This document shows, one piece after another, positions 1 to 21,526 of a DNA stretch of 64,000 nt. Under the pieces are notes generated by a model. That model was not told the origin of the DNA and ran no database searches. It saw nothing but the letters and a program-made list of their open reading frames with translations. The stretch lies in the NCBI RefSeq assembly GCF_003991585.1, contig NZ_PQSP01000002.1, positions 388,420 through 452,419 of the forward strand, in the 5' to 3' direction. Source of the stretch: Saezia sanguinis. Its GTDB lineage: Bacteria > Pseudomonadota > Gammaproteobacteria > Burkholderiales > Burkholderiaceae_C. The translations under genes were made by a program, and so were the position numbers. The stretch's first letter is position 1. Every line of letters starts with the position of its first letter.

Positions 1-82
1 CGTGAAATAAATCATGCTTTTGCCAAAAACACTTATCATGCCTTCTGCTTCCAATCACTAAAAATTACGGGCGTAAGCAATA

Positions 83-367
83 TTATTGAATATGCTTTTT
101 GATCCAGTCACCCTTAAGTTGCCTATCCAGCATCATTTTGATCAGTTGTTGATTGGGAGTCAGGTGAATTTTCCTGACCACCTTGAGCAGCGCGGCATAA
201 ATAAAGCGGTTTCTGGCCTTGCCCTGCACAACCGACTTCACCAGCGTATAACTGCGCCTGGTCTTTTTGGCGATTGCAATAAAATCCACCCTATCGCCGC
301 GAAACGCCTTGATCGTATTCCTGCTCTCGACGAGTTCGGGTGTGTCCTGGCGTTCGGTATAAGACAT
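83..367 (-). CDS. hypothetical small basic protein (94 aa); family not recognised
   Basis: ORF MSYTERQDTPELVESRNTIKAF...KKHIQ, Lys/Arg-rich and possibly DNA-binding. It lies between the window start and cdiA, where a cdiB/tpsB would be expected. No transposase or TpsB motif could be supported. Confidence 0.3.
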   Translation of the reverse strand: MSYTERQDTPELVESRNTIKAFRGDRVDFIAIAKKTRRSYTLVKSVVQGKARNRFIYAALLKVVRKIHLTPNQQLIKMMLDRQLKGDWIKKHIQ

Positions 368-594
368 CCATATCCTTCCAATGAACGCCCTTTAAAACCG
401 GTAGTTTGTCACATGCTCATGTCGGCAAACCACAACAGATAACATACCGCAATGATGGTAAAAATAACCTGTGATTACCATCAGACTTAAAATTTCGGGA
501 TTCCCCTTCATCAGGACGATCCGGCAGTCCGTCCGACTTTGACAAACATTTCAATATCCCGAAGTCTACAGACAAAAGACCTTGGGACAGTGTA

Positions 595-3500
595 TTGCAT
601 AAAAACAAGATCACCATGAAACACCAGAACCCATACTGCCAACACCCGTCTGCTGTGTTGTCACGTCAGCTAACCTGCCTGGCGCTGTCAGTCGCTGTTG
701 CTTTCACGCCTTTGAGTGCTGCTTTTGCCCAGGTGGTGCCTGACCCGAATGCCGGGCAGTACCGTCCTGGTCAGACCAGTGCAGGCAATGGTGTACCTGT
801 TGTCAACATCACTGCGCCCAGCAGCTCGGGCGTGAGCCGCAACCAGTACCACCAGTTCAACGTCCAGCAACAGGGGCTGATCCTTAACAACAGTGTTATT
901 AATACCCAAACCCAGTTAGGCGGCTGGATACAGGGAAATCCTAACCTGCCCTATGGTGCCGCCCGTGTCATATTGAACGAAGTCACCTCCGGCAACCCCT
1001 CGCTGCTGCGCGGCTACATCGAAGTCGGCGGCCAGCGGGCCGAAGTCATCATTGCCAACCCGGCCGGCATTTCAGTCGATGGTGCAGGCTTCATCAACGC
1101 CGCCGGCGTCACCCTCACCACCGGCACGCCCGTCTTTAACAACAGTGGTAACCTCGAATCCTACCGCGTTGGCGGTGGGCGAGTCAGTATTGGTGGGGCG
1201 GGACTGGACACCTCCACTGCCGACTACACCCGCATCATCGCCCGGGCCGTAGAAATCAATTCGGGACTCTGGGCCAATGACCTCAGCATCGCTGCGGGAA
1301 CCGGCACCTTTGCACCGGACGGCACCCCCATCCAACTCACTGAACTCACTGTGGAAGACGCCAGTGGCAAACCCCTGTACGCCATTGACGTGGCCCAACT
1401 GGGTGGCATGTACGCCGGCAAAATCCGCCTCATCGGCACCGAAGCCGGTGTTGGAGTCCGCAATAGCGGACACATCGGGGCCAGCGCCGGGCAGGTCACT
1501 GTCACCGCAGACGGCATGCTTGTCAACAGCGGCACGATTAACAGCAGCCATTCGGTAGCCGGGAGCAGCGGCATCCAGGTCGCTGCGGCCAGTGGCATCA
1601 GCAACACCGGGAGCCTTTACACCCAGGGGCAACTGGTACTCAACAGCAACGGCCAGCTGGATAACCAGGGCACGCTGGCAGCGCTTGGCAACGTCAGCCT
1701 CAATGCGCAAAACATCCACAACACCGCAGACGGACTCATTGCCGCCGGCATGGCAACCGATGGCAGCTTCGACACCCAAGGCCAGCTCAATGCCACGGCA
1801 CAACAGCTACTATCCAACCAGGGCCAGATACTCAGTGGTGCCAACACCACCCTGCAAGCCAATACCCTCACCAACACCAGTGCCACCATCCATGCCGGAA
1901 AAGACCTGAACATCACGGCAGACACCATCCACAACCAGCAGGCCGACCTGCTTGCATCGGGCAACCTGCACATCCAGGGCCTGAACCCGAACACCTCCGT
2001 CAACAGCCAACTCAACAACCAGAACGGCCTCATCTCTGCGGCTGGGCAGGCCCAAATCAGCACCGGCAGCATTGACAACAGCGCTGGCGTCATCATCAGC
2101 GGCGGCAACCTTGCCATCACTACCGGCGACCTCAACGGAGCCGGACAAATCCTCACCGAAGCCAATGCTGACATCACGGTACAAGGCGACTACACCGCTG
2201 AGGCCGGTAACCAGATCATCGCCGATGGCAACCTCCTGCTCAACGTGGACGGGACGCTTACCAATGCCGGAGACATACTCGCTGGTAACACCGCCAGCAT
2301 CACTGCGCACAGCATCGACAACCTGTCCGGTGGCGAAATCAGCGCAGGCACCAATCAGATCACTGCCACCGGCACCAACGCAGGCACCTTCACCAACAGA
2401 GGACTCATCGACGGCATCCTCACCTATATTACTGCCGATGCGCTCACCAACCTGGGCAGCGGACGTATCTACGGCAACCACATCGGCATCCAGGCGGGAA
2501 CGCTCACCAACCGCGACGAGAACAACCAGAGTGCAGTCATTGCCGCGCGTGAGCGCATGGATATTGGCGCTGCAACGCTAACCAATCTGAACAATGCTGT
2601 CATCTTCAGTGCCGGCGACATGTCTATCGGCGGTTCGCTTGATGAGAACCACATTGCGCAAGGCCGTGCAAATTTAGTTTATAACGACGGTGCTGTGATT
2701 GAGGCCCTGGACGACATGCAAATTGCTGCTGCCAGCATCGAGAACCGTAACACCGTCTTCCAGTCCGAGGAACGCGCGCAAAGCTCACAGGACAAATTCA
2801 TCCACATCATCGGCCAATACCTGTTTGATAACGAAGATATTGTCTACTTCAGCGAAGGTGCCTATGGTGACTACAGCTTCCAGATTGTGGGCAAAGGCAG
2901 CGACATCCTCTCCACCATCGCGCTCATTGGTGAAAGCTCACACTACTTCCTCATGCTGCCATCAAGCAAATACCCGATGGCAGACTATCCCTACCTGTAC
3001 CAGCGCGGCGGCCTGCCATTTGCCGCGCTCGATGACGACGGCAACCCTGCCAACTATGAACCCGAAACCACCCAGCTGTGGCAAACCTTCGGCATTCCCA
3101 TACCCAGTGCCAAACCCGGGCAACCCGCCACCATTTGCAACGGCAGCACCACCTGCAACAACGCACAGCAACAAGCCTACGACCAGTACTTAAGCGACTA
3201 TACCGCCTGGCAGGACAGCAACCGCTCCCTGTACCAGCAACTCAACGACAAAATCTTTGACTTCAACGCAGACTTCCTCACCCGCAAAATCAGCATGGAG
3301 AACCTGCGCGAATACACCGAAACCAGATACAGCACCGAAGTCACCGCCAGCAATCCCGGGCAAATCAGCGCTGCGGGCAGCATGCTGCTGGACGGCAACC
3401 TCGTCAACGACAAAAGCCGCATCACCGCAGGCAGCATCATTGCCACCACCGGCAACGTACAAACCATAGACGCCACCGGCGTCAACTACGTCGAGCGCAT

Positions 3501-6500
3501 CGGCAGCGAAATCTCCACCATCCGCACCGCCAGCGGGCGCAGCTGGACACCGCCGGTCGCCGTCAACGAACGCGACGCCGCCAGTCAGTACAGCCTCATC
3601 GTCGCCACCCCACAGCCAAACACCACCGTACAAGGCAGCGGCACGCAGATCGGTAACACACCTGTGGTACAGCTTCCCAATGGCGACCTGATCCAGGCTG
3701 CAAGCCCCAACACCCGCATCCCCGCGAGCAGCCTGTACCAGATCAACCCCGGCAGCAGCAAAAACTACCTCATAGAAACCGACCCACGCTTTGCCAGCTA
3801 CGGCACCTGGCTCACTTCTGACTACATGCTTGCCGCCCTCGGGCTCGATCCGGCGGCCACCCAAAAGCGCCTGGGCGACGGATTCTACGAACAACAACTG
3901 ATCCGCGAGCAGATCGGCCAGCTCACCGGTTATCGTTACCTGGCAGGCTACCTCAGTGATGAAGCACAATACCAGGCGCTGATGAATGCAGGCGTTCAAT
4001 TCGCTCAGGAATACAACCTCACCGTGGGTGTGACGCTCACCGCCGAACAAATGGCGCAACTCACCGGCGACATCGTGTGGCTCGTCAGCACTGAAGTCAC
4101 CCTGCCCGACGGCAGCACAGAAACCGTGCTCGTACCCCAGCTCTACACCCGGGGCGGGACCAGTATGATCACCGCCGGCGGCTCGCTCATCAGCGCCAAC
4201 AACGTCTACATCACCTCAGCAGAAGGCAACCCCATCACCTTGAACAACAACGCCACCATCGCCGGGCGTGAAGGCCTGTTTGTCGATGTCGCCTACCTGC
4301 AAAACCGCATCGGCCAGTTGCACGGCGGCGATGTTGTCTTAAGGTCAGCCACCGACATTGACAACATCGGCGGCACCATCTCAGGGGACAACAGCATCAC
4401 CCTGGCTGCCGCCAGAGACATCAACATCGCCTCCACCGTTGTAGACGGCTACGACATCAACGGCCAGCGCAACGGCATCGGCAACATCGGCAGCGTCTAC
4501 TTAAGCGGCAGGCAAGTGCTTGCTTCTGAGCAGCCGCCCGAACAACAGCCCGCTGCATATAGCGCCCAATCCCGCAGTGTCTCATCTGACACCACGACCG
4601 ATACCACAACCAGTGAACCCTCCGGCAGCAACCAGGGTCAGATCCTGCTGAGCGCCGGGCGCGACATCAACCTGCGTGCGGGTTACATTGGTAATGACGC
4701 CACCGTTTCCACCACCACCGAAGACGGCAGCCAGACCACGGTTGGGGGCAGCACAAACTTGGTCGCCGGGCGCAACATCGACCTGTCCACCGTCACCACC
4801 GAGCACCAGCAAACCCTCAACTTTGACGCCCGCAACAGCCGCGCTCAAGCCAGCCGTGCTGAGGTCGGCAGCCAGATACAAGGCACGGGCGACATCAACC
4901 TCATCGCTGACGGCAACCTGCACCTGCGCGCCTCCGGCGTCCAAAGCGACAGTGGGACTATGAACGCTGCTGCCGACACCATTCATATTGAAGCCGGAGA
5001 AGCGCAGCAAAGCTGGGACGCCTCCTACTATGCCAAATTCAACGGCACCCTGGGTTCCAGCAGCTACGACAACCGCTACAACATCACCGAAGGCAACCTC
5101 ATTGGCTCCACCCTGAGTGCCGAGCAAATCAACCTGCAAAGCCGGGGCGACACCACCATCCAGGCCTCCAGTGTCGTTGCCACGCATGACATCAACCTGT
5201 CTTCCGAGCAAGGCAACATCAACATCGTCTCGGGCACCAGCACCCGCCACACCGAAGCTGACGAAACCACAAAACGCAGCGGTATCTTCACCAGCGGCGC
5301 ATCCCTGACCGTTGGCAACCAAAAAACCGCCACTACTGACACCGTCGACAACAGCTATGCGGTGGCCTCCACCGTCGGCAGCCTGCAAGGTGATGTCAAC
5401 ATCCTGGCCCAACAAGGCAGCTACAACCAGGTAGGCAGCGACCTCCTGGCGCTACAGGGCGACATCAACGTCGTCGCGCAAGACATCAACATCCTTGAAG
5501 CCCGCGAAACCAGCCAGCGCTACCAGACCTACGAATATCAACAAAGCGGCCTCACACTGGGTGTGAGCAGCCCTATCATCAGCGCCGGACAATACACCCA
5601 GCAAATGAGCGATGCGGCAGACCGCACCAGCGACTCACGCATGCAGGCACTGGCCGCCGGTGCTGCGGCCCTGAACATCGCCAACAACGCCAGCGACATC
5701 ATGGACAACGCCCAGGGCATAGGCGATGCCCTCTCCAGCGGCGACATCGGCAGCGCCGGGCTGCAACTCTCCGTGAGCATCGGCAGCACCAAGGCACAAA
5801 GCCAGACCCTGCAACAAAGCGACAGCGCCAAAGGCTCCACCCTAAACGCCGGGGGCAACATCAATCTCATTGCCACAGGCAATCCAAATCCTTCCACAGG
5901 CAAACCAGACACCACGCAAGGCAGTGAAGAAAAACCCACCTACAGCGGCGGCAACATCCTGATCCAGGGAAGTGACATCACAGCCGGGCAAAACATTGTG
6001 CTCGCGGCCAACGACCAGATCAACATCCGTGCGGCTGCCAACACCGCCACAGAAAGCAGCAGCAACAAAAGCAACTCAGGCGCACTGGGTGTGACCATCG
6101 GCAGCAACATCGGGATCACCGCCAGCGCCAGCCAGGGTAGTGGCAACAGTCACACCGCAGACAACAGCTGGACCTACAGCCACGTCAGTGCCGACGACAC
6201 CCTCACCCTCATCAGCGGGGGAGATACCAACATCATCGGCGCCCAGGTCGCCGGCAACACCGTGCGGGCCGACATCGGCGGCGACCTCAACATCCAAACC
6301 CTGCAAGACACCAGCCTGCACCACAGCCAGCAAAGCAGCGGCGGCGGCTCACTGACCATCGGCACCGGGCTCACTGGGATTGGCGGCACCGTCAGCAGCG
6401 GCAAAAGCCATGTCGACGGCAACTACGCCAGCGCACAGGAATACGCCGGCATCATGGCAGGCGACGGCGGCTTTGACATCACCGTCGCCGGCAACACCGA

Positions 6501-8664
6501 CCTCAAAGGCGCCATCATTGCCAGCACGCAAGCAGCGGTAGACGACAACAAAAACCAGTTAACCACCGGCAGCCTCACCATCAGCCAGCTTGCCAACAAC
6601 AGCAACTATGACGCCAAAGGCAGCTCGATTGGCATCGGCTACAACACCAGCAATGCAGACACCAATCTGGCAGACAAACCCGGCATGCAGTCAGCCGTTG
6701 GGGCTCTCTCGGGTAACTCGGTAGGATATGCCAGCGACAGCGGCAGCGACAGCAGCATCACCATCGCCGGCATCAGCACCGGCAGCATCACCATCACCAA
6801 CGAAGAAGAACAGCAACGCAGAACCGGACAGACGGCAGAAGAAGCGATTGCCGCCATCAACGACAGTGTACGCACCGGGCAGAGTGTGAACGGCATAGAC
6901 AAGAACTGGGACGCGCAGCAGCTGATGGATGACATGCAGGCCGGTGCGGAAATTACTGCGGCGTTTGGGCAGCAGGCTTCGCAAGGTGTAGGCAACTTCG
7001 CAACCGCCAAAGTACGACAAGCCCTGTCCATGATGGCCCAGGCCGATCTGCTGGAAGCCACCGATCCACAAGCCGCGACAGAATTACGTACCCAGGCGCA
7101 AGAAATGTACGGCAACTGGAAAGAAGGTGGCGCGTACCGGGTACTGGCGCATACCATTGTTGGGGGTCTCAGTGGCGACTGGAGCGGTGCCGCCGGTGCG
7201 GGCAGCAGCGCCCTCATTGCCGGACAACTCGACGACCTCACAGCTGACCTGCCCCCGGGTGTGAAAGAAGCCGTAGGCGCGGGCGTATCGGCAGGCCTGG
7301 GCTACCTCACGGGGGGAGAACAGGGCGCGACGACAGCGTTCAATACAGACGCCAACAACCGGCAGTTGCACGTAGACGAAATCGCCTGGATCAAACGCCA
7401 CGCACAAGAGTTTGCCAACCAGCAAGGCATCAGTGAAGAAGAAGCCACCAGCATACTGGCACGGCAGGCGCTGATGCAGATCGACTGGGTATGGTACGAA
7501 AAATTCGGCGGCAAAGACGCCTACAACACACAAGCTGCGGCCTTCCTCTCAGGCGCAGGCACCTTGAGCGAAGGCGATGCCACCCAGCAGATGTTTACCG
7601 CCACAGGTGACCAGTATACCCGGCCCTACCTGTTTGCCGAAGATGTACACAATAGCGGCAACTTAAGCTTTTACGAACAGTATGTTATCCGTGACAGCGA
7701 CAAATCCACCTCACAGGTCATGCTCGAAAACGAATGGCGGGGACTCACCGGGCTGCCACAGGGGCTGTGGGACAAATGGAGTGCCTATCAGGGAGAGCGT
7801 GAAGGCGTTGCGTGGCTGCTTTCCGGCCCGACCTTCCTGTTTGACACCCTGTACATGGACGCTATCGGCAAACCGTTTGCCAACGCTGTAGAAAACCCGC
7901 AAGTCATCGCTGAGAGAATACAGGCCGGTGCTGAAGGCGTCAAGGCTATCGGCGGCGAACTCACCCCAGGGCCATCACTGCTCAGCCAGATATATGGCGA
8001 CAACACCGTTCTGCTGTCAGGCAACCTGGCGGTGGCAGATGCAGCACTGCCTGTTGCCGGTATTGTAGGCGTGGGCAAGGCAGGCCAGTTGGTAGGCAAG
8101 GAGTTGCTCAGCAATACGGGCAGCAAGACCGTCAGGCCGAGTGCTTCTTCGGAAAGTACGCCTTCTTCATCGAATGCGAATGCTAGCACAGCGACACCTT
8201 TATATCTGAGTAATTCGACTGCGCCAGAAGTGCAAGCTAGGTTGAATGGTTTGGCGGCTGAAGCACGGCAAGGGTTACCTCCGAACAAAGGAAATGTGGC
8301 TGTGGCAGAAATTAACATTCCAGAGTTGGCAGATCAGCCATTTATAACAAAAGCATTTAGTGGCTATCAAACCGATAAAGATGGATTTGTTGGAAAACCA
8401 TCTGGTAATGTAGATACATGGGCGCTGCAACCACAAAAATCAAGTCCAGAGTTTATTGGCGGTCCGGGGGCGTATTTTAGAGATGTTGATACAGAATTTA
8501 AAATTTTAGAGAATTTAGCGCAAAAACTTGGGCCAAATACAAATGCAACTGGTACAGTTAATTTAATATCAGAAAAAGTCGTTTGTCCTAGCTGTACAAC
8601 CGTCATTATGCAGTTCAGAGAACGTTATCCTAATATCCAACTGAATATATTTACTAGGGATTGA
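595..8664 (+). CDS. cdiA: CdiA / filamentous-haemagglutinin family TpsA exoprotein (2689 aa) with a variable C-terminal toxin domain
   Basis: N-terminal extended signal peptide plus TPS (haemagglutination activity) domain: NPNLPYGAARVILNEVTSGNPSLLRGYIEVGGQRAEVIIANPAGISVDGAGFINAAGVTLTTGTP. This is followed by about 2000 aa of Gly/Asn/Thr-rich FHA-type beta-helical repeats. An AVENP (VENN-like) motif lies near aa 2435. A sharp AT-rich shift over the last ~170 codons (from ~8160) marks a swapped CT toxin. An alternative start is at 616 (MKHQNPY). Confidence 0.85.
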   Translation: MHKNKITMKHQNPYCQHPSAVLSRQLTCLALSVAVAFTPLSAAFAQVVPDPNAGQYRPGQTSAGNGVPVVNITAPSSSGVSRNQYHQFNVQQQGLILNNSVINTQTQLGGWIQGNPNLPYGAARVILNEVTSGNPSLLRGYIEVGGQRAEVIIANPAGISVDGAGFINAAGVTLTTGTPVFNNSGNLESYRVGGGRVSIGGAGLDTSTADYTRIIARAVEINSGLWANDLSIAAGTGTFAPDGTPIQLTELTVEDASGKPLYAIDVAQLGGMYAGKIRLIGTEAGVGVRNSGHIGASAGQVTVTADGMLVNSGTINSSHSVAGSSGIQVAAASGISNTGSLYTQGQLVLNSNGQLDNQGTLAALGNVSLNAQNIHNTADGLIAAGMATDGSFDTQGQLNATAQQLLSNQGQILSGANTTLQANTLTNTSATIHAGKDLNITADTIHNQQADLLASGNLHIQGLNPNTSVNSQLNNQNGLISAAGQAQISTGSIDNSAGVIISGGNLAITTGDLNGAGQILTEANADITVQGDYTAEAGNQIIADGNLLLNVDGTLTNAGDILAGNTASITAHSIDNLSGGEISAGTNQITATGTNAGTFTNRGLIDGILTYITADALTNLGSGRIYGNHIGIQAGTLTNRDENNQSAVIAARERMDIGAATLTNLNNAVIFSAGDMSIGGSLDENHIAQGRANLVYNDGAVIEALDDMQIAAASIENRNTVFQSEERAQSSQDKFIHIIGQYLFDNEDIVYFSEGAYGDYSFQIVGKGSDILSTIALIGESSHYFLMLPSSKYPMADYPYLYQRGGLPFAALDDDGNPANYEPETTQLWQTFGIPIPSAKPGQPATICNGSTTCNNAQQQAYDQYLSDYTAWQDSNRSLYQQLNDKIFDFNADFLTRKISMENLREYTETRYSTEVTASNPGQISAAGSMLLDGNLVNDKSRITAGSIIATTGNVQTIDATGVNYVERIGSEISTIRTASGRSWTPPVAVNERDAASQYSLIVATPQPNTTVQGSGTQIGNTPVVQLPNGDLIQAASPNTRIPASSLYQINPGSSKNYLIETDPRFASYGTWLTSDYMLAALGLDPAATQKRLGDGFYEQQLIREQIGQLTGYRYLAGYLSDEAQYQALMNAGVQFAQEYNLTVGVTLTAEQMAQLTGDIVWLVSTEVTLPDGSTETVLVPQLYTRGGTSMITAGGSLISANNVYITSAEGNPITLNNNATIAGREGLFVDVAYLQNRIGQLHGGDVVLRSATDIDNIGGTISGDNSITLAAARDINIASTVVDGYDINGQRNGIGNIGSVYLSGRQVLASEQPPEQQPAAYSAQSRSVSSDTTTDTTTSEPSGSNQGQILLSAGRDINLRAGYIGNDATVSTTTEDGSQTTVGGSTNLVAGRNIDLSTVTTEHQQTLNFDARNSRAQASRAEVGSQIQGTGDINLIADGNLHLRASGVQSDSGTMNAAADTIHIEAGEAQQSWDASYYAKFNGTLGSSSYDNRYNITEGNLIGSTLSAEQINLQSRGDTTIQASSVVATHDINLSSEQGNINIVSGTSTRHTEADETTKRSGIFTSGASLTVGNQKTATTDTVDNSYAVASTVGSLQGDVNILAQQGSYNQVGSDLLALQGDINVVAQDINILEARETSQRYQTYEYQQSGLTLGVSSPIISAGQYTQQMSDAADRTSDSRMQALAAGAAALNIANNASDIMDNAQGIGDALSSGDIGSAGLQLSVSIGSTKAQSQTLQQSDSAKGSTLNAGGNINLIATGNPNPSTGKPDTTQGSEEKPTYSGGNILIQGSDITAGQNIVLAANDQINIRAAANTATESSSNKSNSGALGVTIGSNIGITASASQGSGNSHTADNSWTYSHVSADDTLTLISGGDTNIIGAQVAGNTVRADIGGDLNIQTLQDTSLHHSQQSSGGGSLTIGTGLTGIGGTVSSGKSHVDGNYASAQEYAGIMAGDGGFDITVAGNTDLKGAIIASTQAAVDDNKNQLTTGSLTISQLANNSNYDAKGSSIGIGYNTSNADTNLADKPGMQSAVGALSGNSVGYASDSGSDSSITIAGISTGSITITNEEEQQRRTGQTAEEAIAAINDSVRTGQSVNGIDKNWDAQQLMDDMQAGAEITAAFGQQASQGVGNFATAKVRQALSMMAQADLLEATDPQAATELRTQAQEMYGNWKEGGAYRVLAHTIVGGLSGDWSGAAGAGSSALIAGQLDDLTADLPPGVKEAVGAGVSAGLGYLTGGEQGATTAFNTDANNRQLHVDEIAWIKRHAQEFANQQGISEEEATSILARQALMQIDWVWYEKFGGKDAYNTQAAAFLSGAGTLSEGDATQQMFTATGDQYTRPYLFAEDVHNSGNLSFYEQYVIRDSDKSTSQVMLENEWRGLTGLPQGLWDKWSAYQGEREGVAWLLSGPTFLFDTLYMDAIGKPFANAVENPQVIAERIQAGAEGVKAIGGELTPGPSLLSQIYGDNTVLLSGNLAVADAALPVAGIVGVGKAGQLVGKELLSNTGSKTVRPSASSESTPSSSNANASTATPLYLSNSTAPEVQARLNGLAAEARQGLPPNKGNVAVAEINIPELADQPFITKAFSGYQTDKDGFVGKPSGNVDTWALQPQKSSPEFIGGPGAYFRDVDTEFKILENLAQKLGPNTNATGTVNLISEKVVCPSCTTVIMQFRERYPNIQLNIFTRD

Positions 8665-8670
8665 TAAACT

Positions 8671-9069
8671 ATGCCTCAGTTTACGAAAACAAGTCAATGG
8701 AAACGATTTGATAATTTTAAAAAAGGGTTGGAGTTTTCAAGAGAAATATATACAGAGGCTATTCAAGAATATGGACTTAATGAATATCAAGCGTTTTCGT
8801 TTTTATATGAGGAAATAGACTCTGAGCTATTTTCGTCGGATAAGATAGAAAGATTTAAAGCCTATACAGCCTTATTTTTTTGTGCTTATGAGCATAAAGT
8901 TGATTTTATTTTAGATGATCCTTTTACTGAAAATGTATTTGATAGATTAAAAAATCTCTATAAAGATTTTTATTCAAATAGTGAGAATTTAAAAAATATT
9001 CCAGACATGCAAGACGAGGAGTCGCAAAAAATTATTAGGATCGTAAAAGAAAACTACGTTAAAAATTAG
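8671..9069 (+). CDS. cdiI: putative CdiI-like immunity protein (132 aa)
   Basis: Small acidic AT-rich ORF that starts 7 nt after the cdiA stop. It has the same low-GC composition as the CdiA-CT. This is the canonical position of a cognate immunity gene, but no family is recognisable. Confidence 0.55.
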   Translation: MPQFTKTSQWKRFDNFKKGLEFSREIYTEAIQEYGLNEYQAFSFLYEEIDSELFSSDKIERFKAYTALFFCAYEHKVDFILDDPFTENVFDRLKNLYKDFYSNSENLKNIPDMQDEESQKIIRIVKENYVKN

Positions 9070-9273: not shown

Positions 9274-11697
9274 ATGCCGACTTCAGTACAAGAGTTAGTT
9301 AATGATACTATTCCAGAACAAACAGTGTTAATTTTTGGGGCAGGGGCATCAATTCCATCAGGTTCCCCATCCGTTGCTATGCTCATAGAAAAGATCAGCA
9401 CAGAATTTGGTATTCCGCCTGATGGATTAACTTTGGCAGAAATATCTGGACTGGCTGAAAGAAAGCGAAATAGGAAAGAACTGATATCTCTCCTTAGAAA
9501 GGAGTTCAAAAATCTTCGCCCAAAGGGTTCAATCCTTAATTTGCCTCTTTACAATTGGAAAAGTATCTACTCAACAAATTACGATGAATTAGTTGAAGAC
9601 TCTTACAAAAGAGTTGGTAAAAGTCTTATATCATTTTCATCTAATTTTGACTTTACAATTCATGACGACCCAAACGCAACAAAGCTTTTCAAAATTCATG
9701 GAACTATAGCTAAAGACATATCTGATGGGAATGCATCGCGAATAATTTTAACTGACATGGATTATGATCAAACACAGGACTATCGGGAAGCTCTTTATCT
9801 ACGATTGGCGACAGACCTTACGTCAGGCCCGCAAGTTATTATAGTAGGGCAATCATTGGCTGATCCAGATCTTAAGGATATTGTCCAAAAAGCTATTGAG
9901 ACTAATCAGAAGGCAATGGCTGGAGGAAGAATCAGTCTCCTTCTTCACACACAAGATCTGAATCGGGCATTATTATTTGAAGCTCGTGGTTTACGCATTG
10001 CTTTCGGTGGGTTAGATGAATTTTTCGCAGCGTTGTCCTCCAAAGCTCCAGACTATTTAACTGCTCATATTGATACTGGTGACATACTTGATTCATTTCC
10101 ATCGTTGAGACCGGTTTCTTATGTTGTTGCAGACGAATTTGACGCATCTAAAGCAGATGTTAGTGCAATATTCAATGGGTGGCCAGCCAAGTTTGCAGAG
10201 CTTGCAGCTGGTTATACCTTTGATCGTACTATTGCTTCAGAGATTTTTGAATATCTGAAACAAGAAAACAAGGTTTGTGCGGTGCTATTAGGAGCGAGTG
10301 GCGTCGGGAAAACGACTGCTGCTCGCCAAGTTATAGTTAAACTAAAAGCAACCGGATTTTATACATGGGAACACAAAACTGATCATCCGCTCAATGTGAA
10401 TGAGTGGCTAGGTGTTGCGCAACGTCTCTCTTCTTCCCAAAAGTCTGGTGTGCTATTAATTGATGACGCTCATTCTCATCTACACCAAGTAAACGACTTA
10501 ATTGACAGGCTAGCGGCAAACAAACAGAATAGCTTAAAAATTATTTTAACTTCTACTCGCAACCATTGGGTCCCTCGTATAAAGTCTCCAAGTATCTATG
10601 CACTTGGCCAAGAATTTGGGTTATCCAAACTTACAAGTCAGGAAATCGATAGGCTTCTAACTTTAGTACAGTCGGCACCACTGCTTCGTAGTCTAGTTGA
10701 AGCTGGTTTTGGTGGTTTTTCTTTGCATGAACAAAGACGGCGACTAATTGATAGATGTGAAGCGGATATGTTTGTTTGCTTAAAAAACATTTTTGCATCA
10801 GAAAAGTTCGATGATATTATCCTCAGAGAATATGCAAGTTTGGACGAACGAGAACAGGAAGTGTATCGGTCAGTTGCTGCAATGGAATACGCTGGAATCA
10901 GAGTACATAGGCAACTTGTAATTCGTCTTTTAAGTATTCCTACAAACGAAATATCGCACCTTTTAGCGTGCCTAGACGAGATTATCAGCGAATATGAAGT
11001 TAACCGTGTCGAGGGCATTTATGGATGGAGGGTGCGGCACTATGTAATAGCAAGTATTATTGCAAAATATAAATTTTTTGAAACGGGAAAAATTATTGAT
11101 CTTTTCAATAAAGTAATTGATCAAATATCTCCAACGTATGACATTGAGATTAGAACAATTCGAGAGTTGTGCAATATCGAATCTGGACTGTCTGTTATCC
11201 CTGATAAACAGATCCAAAATACGCTTCTTCGCAAAATGATGTCCATCGCTCCTGGAGAACGAGTCCCCCGTCACCGCCTAATCCGAAATCTAATCGAGCT
11301 TGGAGAGTTTGAAAAAGCCGAATCCGAAATTCGAATATTTGAGAAAGATTTTAAACGTGACGGTCCAGTCATTCGATATCGAATCCTTTTGTCAATTGCT
11401 CGTGCAACTCATACAGCTGATCTCCTTCAGGAAGATCGAGTTGCAATATTGGAGCAAGCAAGAGAGTTGGCTGCAACTGCTAGCGTTCAATTCGAAAATA
11501 ACAAATCAGTGCTAGGAGCTTATTGCGAATTAGGTGTTGAGACATTTCGCCTTACCGGATCCCATATGGTTTATGATACTGCCTTAGATTTACTAAAGAA
11601 AGCAGAAGTACGTCTAGGGGATCCAGAGATTACCAAAATGATTATGCGCTATCAGCGACGAATTGCTGCGCATAATATTACAGATGAAGAGTCTTAG
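9274..11697 (+). CDS. SIR2-domain STAND NTPase with C-terminal helical/TPR-like sensor region (807 aa); Avs5-like antiphage candidate
   Basis: N-terminal SIR2-like Rossmann motifs: VLIFGAGASIPSG, IYSTNYDEL (TQNID-like) and FKIHGT (catalytic His). Central P-loop NTPase: Walker A LLGASGVGKTT, Walker B VLLIDDAH, then ILTSTRNHW. C-terminal ~350 aa is helical. The gene is AT-rich. GGAG lies upstream of the ATG. Confidence 0.7.
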   Translation: MPTSVQELVNDTIPEQTVLIFGAGASIPSGSPSVAMLIEKISTEFGIPPDGLTLAEISGLAERKRNRKELISLLRKEFKNLRPKGSILNLPLYNWKSIYSTNYDELVEDSYKRVGKSLISFSSNFDFTIHDDPNATKLFKIHGTIAKDISDGNASRIILTDMDYDQTQDYREALYLRLATDLTSGPQVIIVGQSLADPDLKDIVQKAIETNQKAMAGGRISLLLHTQDLNRALLFEARGLRIAFGGLDEFFAALSSKAPDYLTAHIDTGDILDSFPSLRPVSYVVADEFDASKADVSAIFNGWPAKFAELAAGYTFDRTIASEIFEYLKQENKVCAVLLGASGVGKTTAARQVIVKLKATGFYTWEHKTDHPLNVNEWLGVAQRLSSSQKSGVLLIDDAHSHLHQVNDLIDRLAANKQNSLKIILTSTRNHWVPRIKSPSIYALGQEFGLSKLTSQEIDRLLTLVQSAPLLRSLVEAGFGGFSLHEQRRRLIDRCEADMFVCLKNIFASEKFDDIILREYASLDEREQEVYRSVAAMEYAGIRVHRQLVIRLLSIPTNEISHLLACLDEIISEYEVNRVEGIYGWRVRHYVIASIIAKYKFFETGKIIDLFNKVIDQISPTYDIEIRTIRELCNIESGLSVIPDKQIQNTLLRKMMSIAPGERVPRHRLIRNLIELGEFEKAESEIRIFEKDFKRDGPVIRYRILLSIARATHTADLLQEDRVAILEQARELAATASVQFENNKSVLGAYCELGVETFRLTGSHMVYDTALDLLKKAEVRLGDPEITKMIMRYQRRIAAHNITDEES

Positions 11698-11893
11698 CGT
11701 TCAGTATTGACCTGCCTGAGAAATTCCGACTACTAGGAATCAGAGATTTTGGCCGTGGTTGCTAAATCATAGTTCAGTGTGCCAATGAATTGTCGTGGAG
11801 TAAGGTAATTCGGGCTTGAATGCGGTTTGACGAAAGGTATGACGGTAATCCCCCCGCAAAAGCGTAGGCGAATTCAACTGGTCAGTGCAACAC

Positions 11894-11934
11894 CTGGAGA
11901 GTAGCAATATCTGGAGAGTAGCAATATCTGGAGG
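11894..11934. repeat. 17-bp direct tandem repeat (2.4 copies) ctggagagtagcaatat in an intergenic region
   Basis: cacCTGGAGAGTAGCAATAT CTGGAGAGTAGCAATAT CTGGAGG, read directly from the sequence. Confidence 0.8.
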
Positions 11935-12098
11935 TGTATGATGGTAAGCATTTATGGAGCGATGACACATGAGCGCAAAACCAGAATATGGGAATTGTGG
12001 CGGAAGGGCATTCCCATGAGTTTGATTGCTTGCGATATAGCAAATCCACTTGATCTGGCTTTGGTCTTGTTGTTGTTTCTTCTGCATCGATACATTCC

Positions 12099-13817
12099 TC
12101 AGCTCGCCGCCGTGCTTGTGGCGACGACGAGATTCCAATGGTCTTTGAGGACGCCCACAAGGCGCTTCTGACGTTCGGCCAGAAGCGTGGGCGTCCACTC
12201 GTTCTCTGATCTGACTTCCTGCGTCAGCACGAAGGGCGACGCCTTGCCTTTGCCCTTGAAGTAGGCGTCCTTCTTCTTGGCAAAGTCGTAGTTGCTGGCA
12301 GACGAGTTCTTGTTCCTATCCAGCGGAACCAGATTGGCCAAACGGTGTGTCCAGCCATCGCGCTCGTCTTCATCCGGGAACCACTTGATCCAGTCCGAAC
12401 CGTCGGGCGGGGTTTGCGGCAGAACGTGCTCCAGAGACACGGCATCTTGAAGCTGCACGCCGGGGGCGCGCACCAAGGATTCAAGGCGTAAGACCAGCAC
12501 CATCCGTGCCTTGGGCAGATCGTCGTAAACGTCCCCATCGAGTGCCGCAACGAACTTGCCCTTTTGCGCGTCAGTCAGAACCAGCGTGGTGAGCGCAGCC
12601 AGATCCTCATTGAAGGTCTCCGGTTCGATTTCCTTGGTGAGCGCGGCGTAGGTTTCGATGCGCTCGTTGATGCCCACCTTGGTGACCAGCAGGAAATAGG
12701 TCAGGCGTTCCAGTGACTGGAAAAACTCTGCGAGCAATTTGGGCTGCTGCCGGAAGCGCTTGAAGTAAACCAGTGCCGGGGGCACCCAGTCCTTGAAGTC
12801 CACACGGTTGAGCCAAGACAGGTGCTCGTTGATCGTTTCGGCATGTTCGGTGGCCTCGAAGTCGGCATCGCGCACAAAGTCCCACACTTCAGCATAGGGT
12901 TTGATGACCTTGTCGACGAGGTCGATAGGGGTCTTGTACTCGGTGACGTGCTCCTGGAACTCCTTGACCAGGATGTACTTCTGCTTCTTCTTGGCGTAGA
13001 TGCTGCGGATGTGGCCAAACAGGTCACCGAAGGCGTCGCGTCCCAGTGAGCTTTCGATCCGGCTCCACTCTTTTGCGTAGGCGCGGCTTTTGACGTCGCC
13101 TGCCGTGGTGCGGATCAGGCCCAGCACCTGCGCCTTGATGATGTCGATAGGCGCGAGGTCGAGTCCCCGGTTGTTGAGTACGGAGAAGATGCGGTAGGCG
13201 GCTTCAAGGTCGGGCGTGGAGATGACAACCAGCGAGCAGTCGTTGGCGAGGAACTGCCACAGCGCAATGAGGTCGGCAGGCGGAAGCGCCTTGGCCTTTT
13301 CGAGCAGCAGCGTGGCGTTTTCACGGTAACGCAGACGGCTGTCTTTCAGCTTGTCCGTACTGGCGACCAACTGTGCGATGCCACCCGGCTCTTGAATATT
13401 GGTGCGGAAGAAGTCGGCATCTTCCTCGCGGGCGGTCAGGCGGTACTCGTTTTTCTCGCCAAGACTGACCTTGCCCTTCTTGTAGAGGAAGTCTGTGATG
13501 TCGTCTGCAGCATCCGGCATCACGATGCGCAACACGGCGAACAGCATCGTGAGCGTAGACAGGCGTTGCTGGCCGTCGACCACCGATGACTTAGGGTCCC
13601 GGTCGTTCTTGATCAGAACAATGCTGCCGAGGAAATATTGGCTGCTGGCCCCCGAGACACGCGCGTCCTGCATCGCCGAGTACAGATCATCGAACAGCTC
13701 TGTGGCCTGTTCGGTTGTCCAAGCGTAGGGGCGCTGGTAGTCCGGAATCTCGAACTGGTAGCTGCCTTCGAAGATCTCCCGGATCAGTTTGTCGTGGGCT
13801 TCAAGTGTCTTGGCCAT
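12099..13817 (-). CDS. DUF262 (ParB-like/GmrS N-terminal) plus DUF1524 (HNH-like/GmrD C-terminal) protein; GmrSD-family type IV restriction-like nuclease (572 aa)
   Basis: N-terminal FEIPDYQRPYAWTTEQATELFDD and VVDGQQRLSTL (the DGQQR motif of DUF262). C-terminal LEHVLPQ...RLANLVPLDRNKNSSASNYDF (His-Me/HNH-like DUF1524). The gene is GC-rich compared with neighbour 9274..11697. Confidence 0.75.
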   Translation of the reverse strand: MAKTLEAHDKLIREIFEGSYQFEIPDYQRPYAWTTEQATELFDDLYSAMQDARVSGASSQYFLGSIVLIKNDRDPKSSVVDGQQRLSTLTMLFAVLRIVMPDAADDITDFLYKKGKVSLGEKNEYRLTAREEDADFFRTNIQEPGGIAQLVASTDKLKDSRLRYRENATLLLEKAKALPPADLIALWQFLANDCSLVVISTPDLEAAYRIFSVLNNRGLDLAPIDIIKAQVLGLIRTTAGDVKSRAYAKEWSRIESSLGRDAFGDLFGHIRSIYAKKKQKYILVKEFQEHVTEYKTPIDLVDKVIKPYAEVWDFVRDADFEATEHAETINEHLSWLNRVDFKDWVPPALVYFKRFRQQPKLLAEFFQSLERLTYFLLVTKVGINERIETYAALTKEIEPETFNEDLAALTTLVLTDAQKGKFVAALDGDVYDDLPKARMVLVLRLESLVRAPGVQLQDAVSLEHVLPQTPPDGSDWIKWFPDEDERDGWTHRLANLVPLDRNKNSSASNYDFAKKKDAYFKGKGKASPFVLTQEVRSENEWTPTLLAERQKRLVGVLKDHWNLVVATSTAAS

Positions 13818-13854
13818 TGTGTTTTTCTTTCCCTTTTGCGTACGCCGGGTCCGC

Positions 13855-14772
13855 TCAACTCATCTTGGTTATTGTTTCGGGCTGAACTATTTCTATGACC
13901 TGGAACGTCTTGGATGTGCTTCCCGCAAGGTGAAGCACTACCTCGTCGCCTATGACAGCCCCGAGTATTGCCTGTGCCAGAGGGCGGCTTTCATTCACAA
14001 TCCCGTTGGCAAAGTTATCTTTACCTCTGGTGATCTGGACAGTCATTACGTCGTTAGGACGAGCAAGATCGATGTATCGAACTACGTCACCTACCTCGAT
14101 TTCGAGGTCATCTTCTGTGTCGATCAGTACAGAGCTAATCGCTTCTCGCTCCCTCTCAGCTTGAACAGCGTTCGCAACCGATTCAATTTGCTGAGTCACC
14201 CGGGCAGTGAGTTGTCCAGCACCTTGTCCTTCTTCGATCCAGGCGTCTCCTGATGTGTGCTCGGGCTTCCAGCTCTCGCGCAAATACTCAAGGAAGTTGA
14301 TGAGCTTCTCGGTTTCTTGTCGTGGAGTGCAGAACCAGTCCGTTGACCAGATGCGCCAAATGCGACCACACCAGCCAAGAGCTTCAAGGATCTCTTGACG
14401 GATGCGGTCACGATCGGGAACTGACAAAGCAGAGTGGTAGGTTGCTCCGTCGCATTCGATTGCTGCCAGATACGATCCTGGCGCGTCTGGATGCTTGACG
14501 GCGATGTCAATGCGGTATCCCGCCACACCGAGCTGAGGGGTGACTTCATAGCCACGCATCTTGAGCATGTCCATGACGGAGATCTCGAAATCACTGTCTG
14601 GTTCGCGGTCTGTTTCCTCGATGGTCGGCAACGAGCCTGTGCGGGCGTACTCGAGGTAATTGCGCAGCGCCTTGGTGCCGTCCGGAGTAGTGCCATCCAT
14701 CACGATGTCTTCGGGACGAAGAGATGTGTACAGGGCGATTGACTTCTTGGCGCGGGTGAACAGCACGTTCAT
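13855..14772 (-). pseudogene. 3' remnant of a large SF1 helicase - Vsr-like endonuclease - DUF3320 gene (HheA-like architecture). Only the last ~305 codons are present.
   Basis: Begins at helicase motif VI (NVLFTRAKKSIALYTSL, AAA_12 end) immediately after an in-frame TAA. It then has a Vsr/DUF559-like block (IDIAVKHPDAPGSYLAAIECDGATYHS...DRDRIRQEILEALGWCGRIWRIWSTDWF) and a C-terminal DUF3320-like tail. No upstream helicase N-terminus is present; the integrase remnant abuts instead. Confidence 0.6.
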
Positions 14773-14837
14773 TTACTTGCTCCTGCGTCGCATCACGGGC
14801 GAAATACAGCAGTATCGCATAATTTACGGATAAGTTC

Positions 14838-15605
14838 TTAGTATGGGTCACAAAAGTCAGCCCACTCCTGCATCAGTAATCTGCGTTTTTGCAGCATATC
14901 ACCTCTTTGATAAGCCGCTTCAGCCTTATCTTTGAGTTTATGAGCCAAAGCATGCTCAATGACCTCTCTTGGATAGTGTGTTGTTTCCCCAGCCCAATCC
15001 CTGAAAGTTGACCTGAAGCCATGCATCGTAATACCCTGGTAATCCATTCGTTTAAGCACAGCAGTCAAAGACATATCCGATAAAGCCTTATTTGACCTTG
15101 GCGCAGGAAAAACAAAATCACATCCATCCAGTCGGGGGAGATGATTGAGAAGCCTCATTGCTTTGTCGCATAAAGGAATTCGGTGCTCTTTATCCATCTT
15201 CATACGCCTGGCAGGAATAATCCAAAGCTTTTCCTCAAAATCAATTTCACTCCATAATGCCCCACGGATTTCTCCAGAGCGCGCCACAGTCAAAATAGCA
15301 AATTCAACTGCACGGGCAGAAACACCTTCGCGTTGCTGCAAAAGCTTTATAAACTGTGGTATATCTCTATAATGTAATGCTTTGAAATGCTCAACCCGCT
15401 GAATTTTACTTCTGGCTGGCAACAGCTTATCCATGTGACCTTTCCAGCGCGCAGGGTTCTCGCCTGAGCGGTAATTGCGTGCTGCAGCCCAATCCAAAAT
15501 TAATTCAATACGGTTTCTAACCCGGGTAGCCGTCTCCGTTTTCTCTTGCCAGATAGGCTCCAAAATCTTGAGCAATAAAGGCGTATCTACTAAGTCAACA
15601 GGCAA
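14838..15605 (-). pseudogene. tyrosine recombinase/phage-type integrase, N-terminally truncated (catalytic domain only, TTG-initiated ORF)
   Basis: Catalytic-domain residues: R (TVARSGEIRG), HGFRSTFRDW and the Tyr in AEAAYQRGD. An in-frame stop lies only ~31 codons upstream of the called start. About 120 to 150 aa of the arm-binding/core-binding N-terminus expected for P4-type integrases is therefore missing. Confidence 0.6.
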
Positions 15606-17553: not shown

Positions 17554-17609
17554 GTTCTGCGAAATACATATCCTAGCTTATTACGTAGCGGTTTAGGTTT
17601 GTTGCGGGC

Positions 17610-21402: not shown

Positions 21403-21526
21403 TTAAAGTGAGCGCACCGCAAGAGGATGCGAGTGCACATTATAAGGAAAGAATTCTTTTTTTGCATGTATATGAGTAGCATGTGGTGCCAAAGAGCCTG
21501 TTTTGTCTTGTTAGCACTTGGCTGAT

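Follow-up and report, generated by a model that had tools for sequence, protein, structure and literature searches.

Architecture of the cdiA-cdiI locus

The window, by which we mean the whole 64-kb stretch of DNA analyzed here, carries near its left end a large gene, cdiA, and a small gene that directly follows it, cdiI. Exact protein matches identify the host as Saezia sanguinis (Betaproteobacteria, Burkholderiales). The upstream flank, the conserved part of CdiA and the small gene are made up as follows:

83..367 (-): 94-aa ORF upstream of cdiA, taken from the ORF list
393..615 (+): conserved 5' leader/promoter region of cdiA, delimited by nucleotide similarity to L020
616..729 (+): predicted Sec signal peptide, aa 1-38, with cleavage after AFA, proposed from a reading of the sequence
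727..1521 (+): TPS secretion domain, aa 38-302, with the motifs NPNL and NPAGI (Pfam PF05860, TIGR01901)
1480..6339 (+): filamentous-hemagglutinin shaft of FHA-1 repeats, a central non-repeat region and FHA-2 (Pfam PF05594, PF13332)
8671..9069 (+): cdiI, predicted cognate immunity protein of 132 aa, all-alpha, RUS67272.1 / CUZ56_01215 (conserved gene order, homologues)

The earlier note had described a 2689-aa TpsA/CdiA with TPS and FHA regions, and the Pfam matches bear out this architecture, although the protein is likely to be slightly shorter. The open reading frame at 595..8664 (+) comprises 2689 codons if started at a TTG, but the likely start is the ATG at 616, which is conserved in the metagenomic relative L020 and gives a protein of 2682 aa. 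The nucleotide similarity between L020 and the window (82.8% identity) runs from nt 393 into cdiA, and upstream of nt 393 the two are unrelated. A sigma-70 promoter scan of this leader found no convincing consensus, and promoter and terminator scans of the locus gave nothing informative.

The TPS domain is matched by PF05860 with an E-value of 6.5e-53 and by TIGR01901 with 6.6e-21. Within the shaft, the central non-repeat region covers approximately aa 700-1160, and the best stretch of Fil_haemagg_2 (PF13332) is aa 1722-1908 (E 1.5e-37). Residues 1705-2199 are 31-39% identical to Yersinia and Dyella CdiA, and the shaft is 39-42% identical to Ralstonia FhaB. A scan of genome contigs gave relatives of at most 52% identity, and one of metagenomes gave a single short relative.

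The variable C terminus of CdiA

Beyond the shaft, the C-terminal region (CT) of CdiA is divided by two junctions, one in the protein and one in the DNA:

7342..7371 (+): probable pre-toxin boundary NTDANN/RQLH, aa 2243-2252, positional equivalent of VENN or Nx(E/Q)LYN (hhalign, homologue alignment)
7372..8187 (+): helical N-terminal domain of the CdiA-CT and Ser/Thr/Asn-rich linker, containing AVENP (homologues, AF2)
8188 (+): recombination breakpoint, where scaffold homology ends and an AT-rich cassette begins (blastn against L017, base-level alignment, GC3)
8188..8664 (+): deaminase toxin domain, aa 2525-2682 (Pfam PF14424, clade motifs, AF2)
8203-8220 (+): YLSNST start motif of the deaminase toxin (homologue motif)
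8479-8502 (+): RxxDxExK motif of helix 2, RDVDTEFK, aa 2622-2629, with D2625 and E2627 (BURPS668_1122 clade definition)
8584-8595 (+): CxxC motif of helix 3, CPSC, aa 2657-2660 (BURPS668_1122 clade definition)
8662-8664 (+): cdiA stop codon (sequence)

A motif scan found no VENN string in CdiA, and the Pfam PT-VENN domain (PF04829) had no match at E≤10 to the full-length protein or to sub-fragments of it. The pentapeptide AVENP (aa 2424, or 2431 in the earlier note's numbering; nt 7885-7899), which had been taken for a VENN-like motif, reads AVRENP in a Pseudomonas homologue and sits within a conserved helical domain that runs ∼100 residues further at 93% identity in the metagenomic relative L017 (JGI 3300009856). 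We therefore reject AVENP as a VENN-type motif, given the lack of a PT-VENN match and its position inside this domain. The VENN-equivalent of CdiA is more likely to be NTDANN/RQLH, judging from three alignments: NTDANN (aa 2243-2248) falls on the NAVENN of Yersinia in a profile-profile comparison (hhalign, P 2e-4, probability 45%), NRQLH is invariant across six homologues, and BLASTP homology to the Ralstonia FhaB CT begins at CdiA aa 2248, adjoining EQFN/RQLH of FhaB. The boundary column reads NTDANN in the window and NGTQYN, NATAYN or, in Ralstonia, AEQFN in the homologues, and the Nx(E/Q)LYN consensus of Burkholderia-type CDI is not matched exactly.

The helical domain that follows this boundary is 93% identical in amino acid sequence to that of P0121/L017, whose toxin differs, and 34-35% identical to Pseudomonas and Ralstonia CTs that bear the same deaminase. 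It has no match in Pfam and no sequence match in the PDB, and its AF2 model is all-helical at low confidence. Residues 2249-2523 are a putative translocation/entry domain.

The second junction is sharp. In a blastn comparison, positions 1-1162 of L017 align with window positions 7029-8188 at 93.8% nucleotide identity, and nothing aligns past 8188. The GC content is 0.594 over 616-8187, 0.403 over 8188-8664 and 0.283 in the 132-aa ORF, and third-position GC drops from about 0.62 to about 0.2 across the breakpoint. Because the switch in composition coincides with the end of L017 identity at nt 8188, it is not a matter of chance, and the GC drop at STATPLYLSNS (beginning at aa 2524, nt 8185) is, on this comparison of sequences, a true recombination breakpoint. 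The abrupt AT-rich switch reported earlier at this string is thus upheld by both composition and homology, the breakpoint lying within ∼5 codons of the original placement. Beyond it, L017 carries a different AT-rich CT, then an array of small ORFs (one an Imm35) and a POTRA_2-containing TpsB at L017:3887-4405. Past 8188 the CTs of the window and L017 are unrelated, so that a conserved scaffold here gives way abruptly to a C-terminal toxin of the polymorphic kind.

The junction had also been likened, at LYLSN, to the (E/Q)LYN motif of Burkholderia, and this part of the claim does not survive. The string (V/I/L)YLSNST(A/N)P is the conserved opening motif of the deaminase cassette and accompanies it wherever it recurs, in orphan CTs as well as in a PAAR-like (DUF4150) protein. 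In the base-level alignment, YLSNST falls past the DNA breakpoint, 5-9 codons into the variable side. LYLSN is accordingly rejected as a scaffold-side ELYN-type motif and is better described as the first motif of the mobile cassette itself. The 64-kb window holds no orphan CT/immunity copies elsewhere. We propose that the AT-rich cassette, consisting of the toxin domain and cdiI, was swapped by recombination at nt 8188, and that the exchange took place not at a VENN/ELYN motif but in the low-complexity linker that joins the two CT domains.

What the earlier note called a divergent CT toxin of ∼150 codons proves to be a 158-residue domain, different from the L017 toxin, in which Pfam places the Toxin-deaminase family PF14424 at aa 2558-2679 (E 7.5e-19; 68.7-70.5 bits, with the gathering cutoff at 29.6). 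The BURPS668_1122 clade is defined by RxxDxExK in helix 2 and CxxC in helix 3 and is often truncated after helix 3/strand 4 (Iyer et al. 2011, PMC3239186). The window toxin ends 22 residues past CPSC, right after strand 4, and so has a truncated core; all of the deaminase homologues aligned keep the catalytic Glu, the flanking R/K and the CxxC. In the AF2 model, the core (pLDDT 70-87) alternates beta-strands with helices that bear the DxE and CxxC motifs. The top Foldseek matches of this model in the PDB are APOBEC3H, APOBEC3C and AID, with probabilities of 0.97-1.0, a weak E of 6.5e-3 and a TM-score of ∼0.38, and a sequence search of the PDB gave no match below E 0.5, only weak similarity to APOBEC3F around the CxxC. 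The YLSNST-deaminase module also occurs in orphan CTs of Pseudomonas and Vibrio, in the DUF4150/PAAR-like protein and in Ralstonia FhaB. By its motifs and modeled fold, the CdiA toxin is a BURPS668_1122-clade (PF14424) zinc deaminase with DxE and CxxC as ligands and with predicted activity. The association of this clade with hemagglutinins and T5SS was described in 2011 (PMC3239186), and members of PF14424 deaminate cytosine in ssDNA in a base-editor reporter (bioRxiv 10.1101/2023.05.21.541555).

The probable immunity gene and the position of cdiB

The AT-rich, immunity-like ORF of 132 aa noted earlier begins 6 nt past the cdiA stop codon. Its product is 45% identical to that of the ORF directly 3' of the Pseudomonas deaminase CT in L019 and 26% identical (E 2e-7) to that of the ORF 3' of the Ralstonia FhaB deaminase. 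Because these homologues directly follow homologous deaminase toxins in both genera, the 132-aa protein is very probably the cognate immunity protein of the deaminase toxin; its place immediately downstream of the toxin and the conserved gene order are those of a cognate immunity gene, and protection is predicted.

CdiI itself had no match in Pfam, NCBIfam, PHROG or the PDB, and a PDB fold search of its model (pLDDT 91) gave no significant match. The motifs YQAFAYxYDE and DDPFTxDV are common to all 18 representative homologues. None of 19 family members matched Imm2 or Imm3 (PF14425) at E≤1, or any other Pfam immunity model, and the partner of the Vibrio deaminase homologue, which is not homologous to CdiI, has a weak Imm3 match (4.5e-5). 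On its alignments and modeled fold, CdiI belongs to a small all-alpha family that is absent from Pfam.

The statement that the window holds no TpsB/CdiB gene withstood a six-frame search of the 64 kb with an HMM built from 8 CdiB proteins, in which the best E was 4.6; the same HMM detected the TpsB fragments in L016 (4e-58) and L017 (3e-31). Upstream, nt 1-594 contain the 94-aa minus-strand ORF that had been reported there, with no match in Pfam, NCBIfam, PADLOC, PHROG or plasmid searches, and in addition a 33-codon plus-strand tail at 1-102, which we considered as a TpsB C-terminus and rejected, as it bears no similarity to CdiB ends. The E. coli-type order cdiB-cdiA-cdiI is thus not what the window presents.

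In Burkholderia-type CDI (BcpAIOB), cdiB follows cdiI. The A-I part of the order A-I-(O)-B is present in the window and B is absent downstream, and the order is found in L017 and in Ralstonia solanacearum (L021), where cdiB lies 1-2.5 kb downstream of cdiI; this placement rests on two related loci whose 3' ends were readable. The Ralstonia locus runs fhaB(deaminase)-imm-gap-fhaC and has no TpsB upstream. Neither L020 (82.8% nucleotide identity) nor L014/L015 (75% amino acid identity) has a cdiB within 1.4-2.4 kb upstream. The earlier note had placed the partner transporter elsewhere or upstream; given the Burkholderiales host, the downstream cdiB of two relatives and the lack of an upstream cdiB in the 5' relatives, the partner is less likely to lie upstream. 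In the window, the corresponding downstream space is occupied as follows:

9274..15605 (both strands): block in the place of the orphan modules and cdiB of relatives (Pfam, PADLOC)
9274-11697 (+): SIR2-STAND NTPase (Pfam, PADLOC)
12099-13817 (-): GmrSD (Pfam, PADLOC)
13855-14772 (-): Hhe/PDC-S37 C-terminal fragment with REase_MTES_1575 (Pfam, PADLOC)
14838-15605 (-): tyrosine integrase, N-terminally truncated (Pfam, PADLOC)

Housekeeping genes come after this block, and no TpsB remnant is present; glycosyl-hydrolase-family-3 and Ada genes lie at 16219-20167. A 20-nt imperfect direct repeat (8614-8633 / 15847-15866) was considered as a pair of att sites for an island, but the match cannot be lengthened and has an E of ∼0.05, so it is probably due to chance. 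Since defense genes and the remains of an integrase fill the downstream position of cdiB, the cognate gene would be elsewhere in the genome or lost.

Interpretation and comparison with known systems

Together, these features lead us to read the locus, with a probability of roughly 0.8, as a Burkholderia-type CdiA/BcpA two-partner-secretion deaminase toxin with its cdiI, carrying an exchanged cassette and having its cdiB elsewhere or lost. By analogy with characterized systems, CdiA would be exported through a TpsB pore and then displayed on the cell surface, from where it would on contact deliver the CT into a neighboring cell. This CT (aa ∼2249-2682) would be bipartite, a helical entry domain followed by the 158-residue deaminase, which may turn cytosine to uracil in the target, most likely in ssDNA, and so poison or mutagenize it. 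In the producer cell, the 132-aa all-alpha protein would bind and neutralize the toxin.

How the locus came to lack a linked transporter gene can be viewed in more than one way. The defense/integrase block may have removed the orphan array together with cdiB, leaving a CdiA that cannot be exported and is recently disabled, with cdiI perhaps retained against kin. We regard this as possible though doubtful. The space that holds cdiB in L017 and Ralstonia is here taken by the SIR2-STAND, GmrSD and truncated nuclease/integrase genes, the six-frame search recovered no remnant of TpsB, and two protein searches gave no 100% match to CdiA though its neighbors were present, so that cdiA is perhaps not annotated as a normal CDS. 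Yet the cdiA frame is intact over 8 kb, with neither stop codon nor frameshift and with intact TPS motifs, and dN/dS against three relatives is 0.13-0.19, a value averaged over the whole divergence. That CdiA is instead intact and selectively maintained, its cdiB displaced by the defense island and its export provided in trans by an unlinked TpsB, is a conjecture that we consider unlikely; if true, it would make this a natural uncoupled CdiA/CdiB pair. As a still weaker addition, the AT-rich block from 8188 to ∼12000 (toxin, immunity and SIR2-STAND) might have been mobilized as a whole, which would tie an anti-phage gene to a CDI cassette.

It is rather improbable that this is an ordinary E. 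coli-type cdiBAI locus with cdiB just past the left edge of the window. The closest TPS relatives in reference genomes (Yersinia and Dyella, 46-52% identity) all have cdiB 30-60 nt upstream, and a TpsB also precedes the gene of P0003 (59% identity), but in the 594 bp before cdiA there is a 94-aa ORF in divergent orientation and nothing like the C-terminus of a TpsB, the much closer L020 and L014/L015 lack an upstream cdiB, L017 (93.8%) and Ralstonia have theirs downstream, and there is no PT-VENN domain. Very improbable, finally, is a filamentous-hemagglutinin adhesin with an inactive or non-toxic deaminase and an unrelated downstream ORF: the DxE (not HxE/CxE) is atypical, as is a core that stops after strand 4, and predicted-inactive eukaryotic clade members were noted by Iyer et al. 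(PMC3239186), but DxE is the norm of this clade, members of the Pfam family are active on ssDNA, the catalytic residues are conserved in all homologues, toxin and downstream ORF vary together across three genera, and a cassette swap such as that with L017 is a hallmark of polymorphic toxins.

CdiA proteins carrying PF14424 toxins are already described, in P. aeruginosa LESB58 (PMC4725963) and Y. intermedia 29909 (PMC9424206), and the window locus is a further example that leaves the current understanding of CDI unchanged. What it adds is a base-precise example of toxin-cassette exchange within a CdiA-CT, at the linker between presumed entry domain and toxin rather than at the VENN/ELYN boundary; the definition of a small immunity family that goes with PF14424 deaminases, so far uncatalogued and confidently predicted in its fold; and a Burkholderia-type locus with phage-defense genes in the usual place of the transporter gene. 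PF14424 enzymes are also compact DxE-type cytosine deaminases of interest for base editing, and a matched inhibitor, the immunity protein, aids their handling.

Among known systems, the fhaB-imm-fhaC locus of Ralstonia solanacearum pRSgd (CP144383.1) shares with the window a Burkholderiales host, the TPS/FHA architecture, a CT that is homologous from N/RQLH to its end (35% over ∼500 columns, the YLSNST-deaminase included), a homologous immunity ORF directly after the toxin and the lack of a TpsB upstream. It differs in having fhaC/cdiB 1.1 kb past the immunity gene, whereas the 55 kb downstream of cdiI in the window contain no such gene. Nor was a gene resembling bcpO identified. The E. coli-type CdiBAI loci of Yersinia (L001-L011) resemble it in their TPS domain (46-52% identical), FHA-2 (31-35%), polymorphic CT and small downstream ORF, but their cdiB ends 30-60 nt upstream and they have a PT-VENN domain with VENN/VDNN, neither of which the window has. 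PALES_28341 of P. aeruginosa LESB58 (PMC4725963) and the CdiA-CT of Y. intermedia ATCC 29909 (PMC9424206), likened here by their descriptions, have a PF14424 tip and a preceding entry-type domain, but lie next to a cdiB, and their immunity proteins may be of other families.

According to Zhang et al. 2012 (PMC3482391), deaminases of the BURPS668_1122 clade are directly followed by the genes of the immunity proteins Imm2 and Imm3, which are small, all-alpha and acidic/hydrophobic; CdiI resembles them in size, fold class and position directly 3' of the deaminase, but its family matches no Pfam immunity model at E≤1. The T6SS toxins DddA and SsdA (SCP1.201, PF14428) are, like the window toxin, interbacterial toxins of the deaminase superfamily but differ in Pfam clade and delivery route. 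The 50 best Foldseek hits comprise AID/APOBEC proteins and cytidine deaminases exclusively, with no DddA or SsdA structure among them, and the SCP1.201 and BURPS668_1122 clades were placed together by Iyer et al. (PMC3239186).

The cdiA gene and a junction within its C-terminal region

The cdiA gene is a single uninterrupted ORF at 595..8664 on the plus strand, 2689 codons when counted from TTG, and its start is probably ATG 616, giving 2682 residues; this ATG is kept in the metagenomic relative L020, and a predicted Sec-type signal peptide follows it. The earlier note had described a large TpsA/CdiA protein with a TPS domain and FHA repeats, and Pfam indeed finds both in the intact ORF (all features on the plus strand, residues numbered from ATG 616):

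aa 38-302, TPS secretion domain (Pfam, E 6.5e-53)
aa 1722-1908, FHA repeats, Fil_haemagg_2 (Pfam, E 1.5e-37)
aa 2249-2523, first part of the C-terminal toxin region (CdiA-CT), an N-terminal helical domain and linker
aa 2525-2682, second part of the CdiA-CT, the deaminase
aa 2558-2679, PF14424, "Toxin-deaminase, BURPS668_1122 family", at the very end of the protein (Pfam, 68.7 bits, cutoff 29.6)

Comparison with three relatives gave a dN/dS of 0.13-0.19 for the gene. Searches of a collection of 5.8 billion proteins, in which neighbouring S. sanguinis proteins, including the predicted CdiI, are present, returned no 100%-identical CdiA. The public record may lack an annotation for 616-8664 or mark it as a pseudogene, despite the intact ORF seen here.

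The GC content falls from 0.594 (616-8187) to 0.403 (8188-8664) and to 0.283 in the 132-aa ORF at 8671..9069, with third-position GC going from ~0.62 to ~0.2 across the shift. An abrupt switch to AT-rich sequence had been placed at STATPLYLSNS, which begins at aa 2524 (nt 8185), and the placement holds to within ~5 codons, as the 93.8% DNA identity of the metagenomic locus L017 (encoding the relative P0121) to window 7029-8188 ends at 8188. In a base-level alignment the homology runs through a Ser/Thr/Asn-rich linker, ...SSES(T/S)P(SSS/FLS)N..NA(S/A), and the sequences are unrelated beyond it, where L017 has a different AT-rich C-terminal domain, then six small ORFs (one Imm35) and, at normal GC, a TpsB N terminus (own HMM E 3e-31; Pfam POTRA_2 E 8.5e-16). 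Given that the identity ends at 8188 with a different CT beyond, the alignment identifies this nucleotide as a genuine cassette-exchange junction. CDI systems are already known to exchange CT subdomains as modules, and a point of minor interest here is a base-precise swap junction within the CdiA-CT, not at VENN/ELYN.

LYLSN had been likened to the Burkholderia-type (E/Q)LYN junction. As a scaffold-side motif it is ruled out: (V/I/L)YLSNST(A/N)P opens every deaminase homologue found (P0122-P0127 and Ralstonia FhaB), whether this is an orphan CT fragment from Pseudomonas or Vibrio, a DUF4150/PAAR-like protein or the 3707-aa Ralstonia FhaB, and its copy in the window falls beyond the breakpoint, in the variable part. 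Since the motif is common to all of them whatever is N-terminal, sequence comparison makes YLSNST the start of the toxin cassette. AVENP is present where it had been reported (aa 2424), but its proposed role as a VENN-like motif is ruled out: it is embedded well within a helical region whose 93% identity to L017 persists for another ~100 residues, and PT-VENN has no match in CdiA even at E≤10. The Pseudomonas homologue reads AVRENP at this position.

For the classical pre-toxin boundary, NTDANN/RQLH (aa 2243-2252), cut between NTDANN and RQLH, is a stronger candidate. NRQLH is invariant in six homologues, the BLASTP match to the Ralstonia CT starts at aa 2248, beside the Ralstonia AEQFN/RQLH, and hhalign aligned NTDANN on Yersinia NAVENN (P 2e-4, with a probability of only 45%). 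With this boundary the CdiA-CT in the classical sense would comprise ~434 residues in two parts, the first of which (aa 2249-2523) is probably a cytoplasm-entry domain by analogy with characterised CdiA-CTs (PMC9424206); it has no family match and no PDB sequence match, and its AF2 model is poor.

The deaminase and its predicted immunity protein

The toxin carries RDVDTEFK (RxxDxExK) and CPSC and stops just past strand 4; RxxDxExK, CxxC and an end after strand 4 are features of the BURPS668_1122 clade, for which delivery by T5SS/hemagglutinin proteins and immunities of the Imm2, Imm3 and SUKH types are listed (Iyer et al. 2011, PMC3239186). The best PDB matches to the AF2 model of this part (pLDDT 70-87) are all AID/APOBEC ssDNA cytosine deaminases (probability 0.97-1.0, E 6.5e-3, TM ~0.38), and phmmer against the PDB gave solely a weak APOBEC3F match near the CxxC helix. 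Members of PF14424 deaminated ssDNA cytidine in a base-editor reporter (bioRxiv 10.1101/2023.05.21.541555). At the level of the family, the toxin would most likely act by deaminating cytosine to uracil in target-cell ssDNA. Vibrio gazogenes (CP018836.1) and Pseudomonas sp. R1-15 (CP071660.1) have long arrays of orphan cdiA-CT/cdiI modules, which include AHH, Ntox21, EndoU, CdiI_2/CdiI_3 and SUKH, the deaminase CT being one cassette among many.

The next gene starts 6 nt past the cdiA stop:

8671..9069, plus strand, predicted cdiI, 132 aa (RUS67272.1 / CUZ56_01215)

Its product is 45% identical to that of the ORF directly 3' of the Pseudomonas deaminase CT and 26% identical (E 2e-7) to that of an ORF that in Ralstonia overlaps the stop codon of the gene for the FhaB deaminase. 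The pairing with the toxin is kept in three genera, which on genomic grounds strongly supports its predicted role as the cognate immunity protein. Run exhaustively against 1.84 billion representatives, phmmer returned only 18 relatives, all of 106-155 aa, with GLxxYQAFAYxYDE and DDPFTxDV in common. All 19 family members are without a Pfam match, also to Imm2 and Imm3, and this uncatalogued predicted immunity family is of minor interest. The AF2 model is confident and all-alpha (pLDDT 91, pTM 0.85), with no significant fold match in the PDB.

Genes on either side

83-367, minus strand, 94-aa ORF divergent from cdiA, a possible small regulator
9274-11697, plus strand, 807-aa SIR2_2 and novel STAND NTPase 5 protein (PADLOC ThsA-like SIR2, E 7e-20)
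12099-13817, minus strand, GmrSD-type (DUF262/DUF1524) nuclease
13855-14772, minus strand, 305-aa C-terminal fragment of an Hhe/PDC-S37-like nuclease (REase_MTES_1575 and GreA/B C-terminal-like domain)
14838-15605, minus strand, tyrosine integrase without its N-terminal ~150 residues

As noted earlier, window 1-594 holds only the 94-aa ORF, besides a 33-codon plus-strand tail at the left edge that has no resemblance to a TpsB end. Searches of Pfam, NCBIfam, PADLOC, PHROGs and plasmid records gave no match to this ORF; a stretch within it, RSYTLVKSVVQGKARN, was judged by eye to be HTH-like. L020:1139-1361 aligns with window 393-615 (82.8% nt identity over the whole 393-867 match), so that ~220 bp 5' of the cdiA start are conserved, and the sequence further upstream is unrelated, a pattern suggesting that a conserved leader or promoter belongs to cdiA itself and has come with it into various upstream contexts.

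Directly 3' of cdiI, the SIR2-STAND gene (GC 0.40, AT-rich as the toxin cassette) is probably an anti-phage defence gene. The 90%-identity cluster of the GmrSD protein has 678 members, some from Rhodocyclaceae MAGs and many from metagenomes, a size and spread that suggest a recently spreading mobile defence gene. The 305-aa ORF matches only profile positions 1180-1367 of 1550 of the Hhe/PDC-S37 helicase-nucleases, and it and the integrase (13855-15605) seem to be relics of a decayed integrative element, beyond which come housekeeping genes. A 20-nt direct repeat (18/20 matches), TTCAGAGAACGTTATCCTAA at 8614-8633 and TTCAGTGAAAGTTATCCTAA at 15847-15866, has its copies in the last toxin codons and just beyond the integrase remnant, 7.2 kb apart, and may be an att-like duplication; it is without extension, its pairwise E is ~0.05, and chance is the probable explanation. 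Farther along, several minus-strand genes of 21329-33758 adjoin tRNA-Gly(CCC) (21329-21402, minus) and encode a 1117-aa SF1 helicase (MkoC/MkoA-like, PADLOC), a rhomboid protease and a 1796-aa DUF3686/DUF7902/AAA protein, with 686-aa and 223-aa ORFs that have no family match; this region may be a second defence-type island.

The place of cdiB

A TpsB HMM made from eight CdiB proteins, run on the six-frame translation of the whole 64-kb window, found no TpsB (best E 4.6), in agreement with the earlier note, and readily detected the partial TpsBs of the related loci L016 and L017. Defence genes and the integrase remnant occupy the position that cdiB has in L017 and R. solanacearum, so that the cognate cdiB either was lost on arrival of the defence block or is encoded at another place in the genome. 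That the locus is stranded, with cdiB lost and CdiA no longer exported, seems rather unlikely: the intact 8-kb ORF and its low dN/dS against the three relatives speak against long-standing decay, and leave room for recent loss. The absence of a linked transporter gene, its usual place held by defence genes, is of minor interest.

In the more distant Yersinia and Dyella loci (46-52% identity in the TPS domain), cdiB ends 30-60 nt upstream of cdiA, whereas closer relatives have no cdiB there: L020 (82.8% nt identity, beginning at nt 393) has a 304-aa minus-strand ORF, and in L014/L015 (75% aa identity) the place is taken by one gene for an HTH protein and one for a nucleoside deoxyribosyltransferase. 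In L017, one of two related loci with a visible 3' end, cdiB lies downstream of the immunity gene, and R. solanacearum pRSgd likewise has the order fhaB-imm-1.1 kb-fhaC: the cdiB-type gene is downstream, and a gene for an ABC transporter stands upstream. An order with cdiB downstream of cdiI is the Burkholderia type, expected in a Burkholderiales host (PMC4725963). The window's CyoA, CyoC, CyoE, PspA, GmrSD and 132-aa protein match proteins of Saezia sanguinis (Betaproteobacteria, Burkholderiales, Saeziaceae) exactly, which fixes the host. The deaminase-tipped CdiA is already a known type, with PF14424-tipped proteins listed for P. aeruginosa LESB58 (PMC4725963) and Y. intermedia 29909 (PMC9424206) and the association of the clade with hemagglutinin/T5SS proteins known since 2011.
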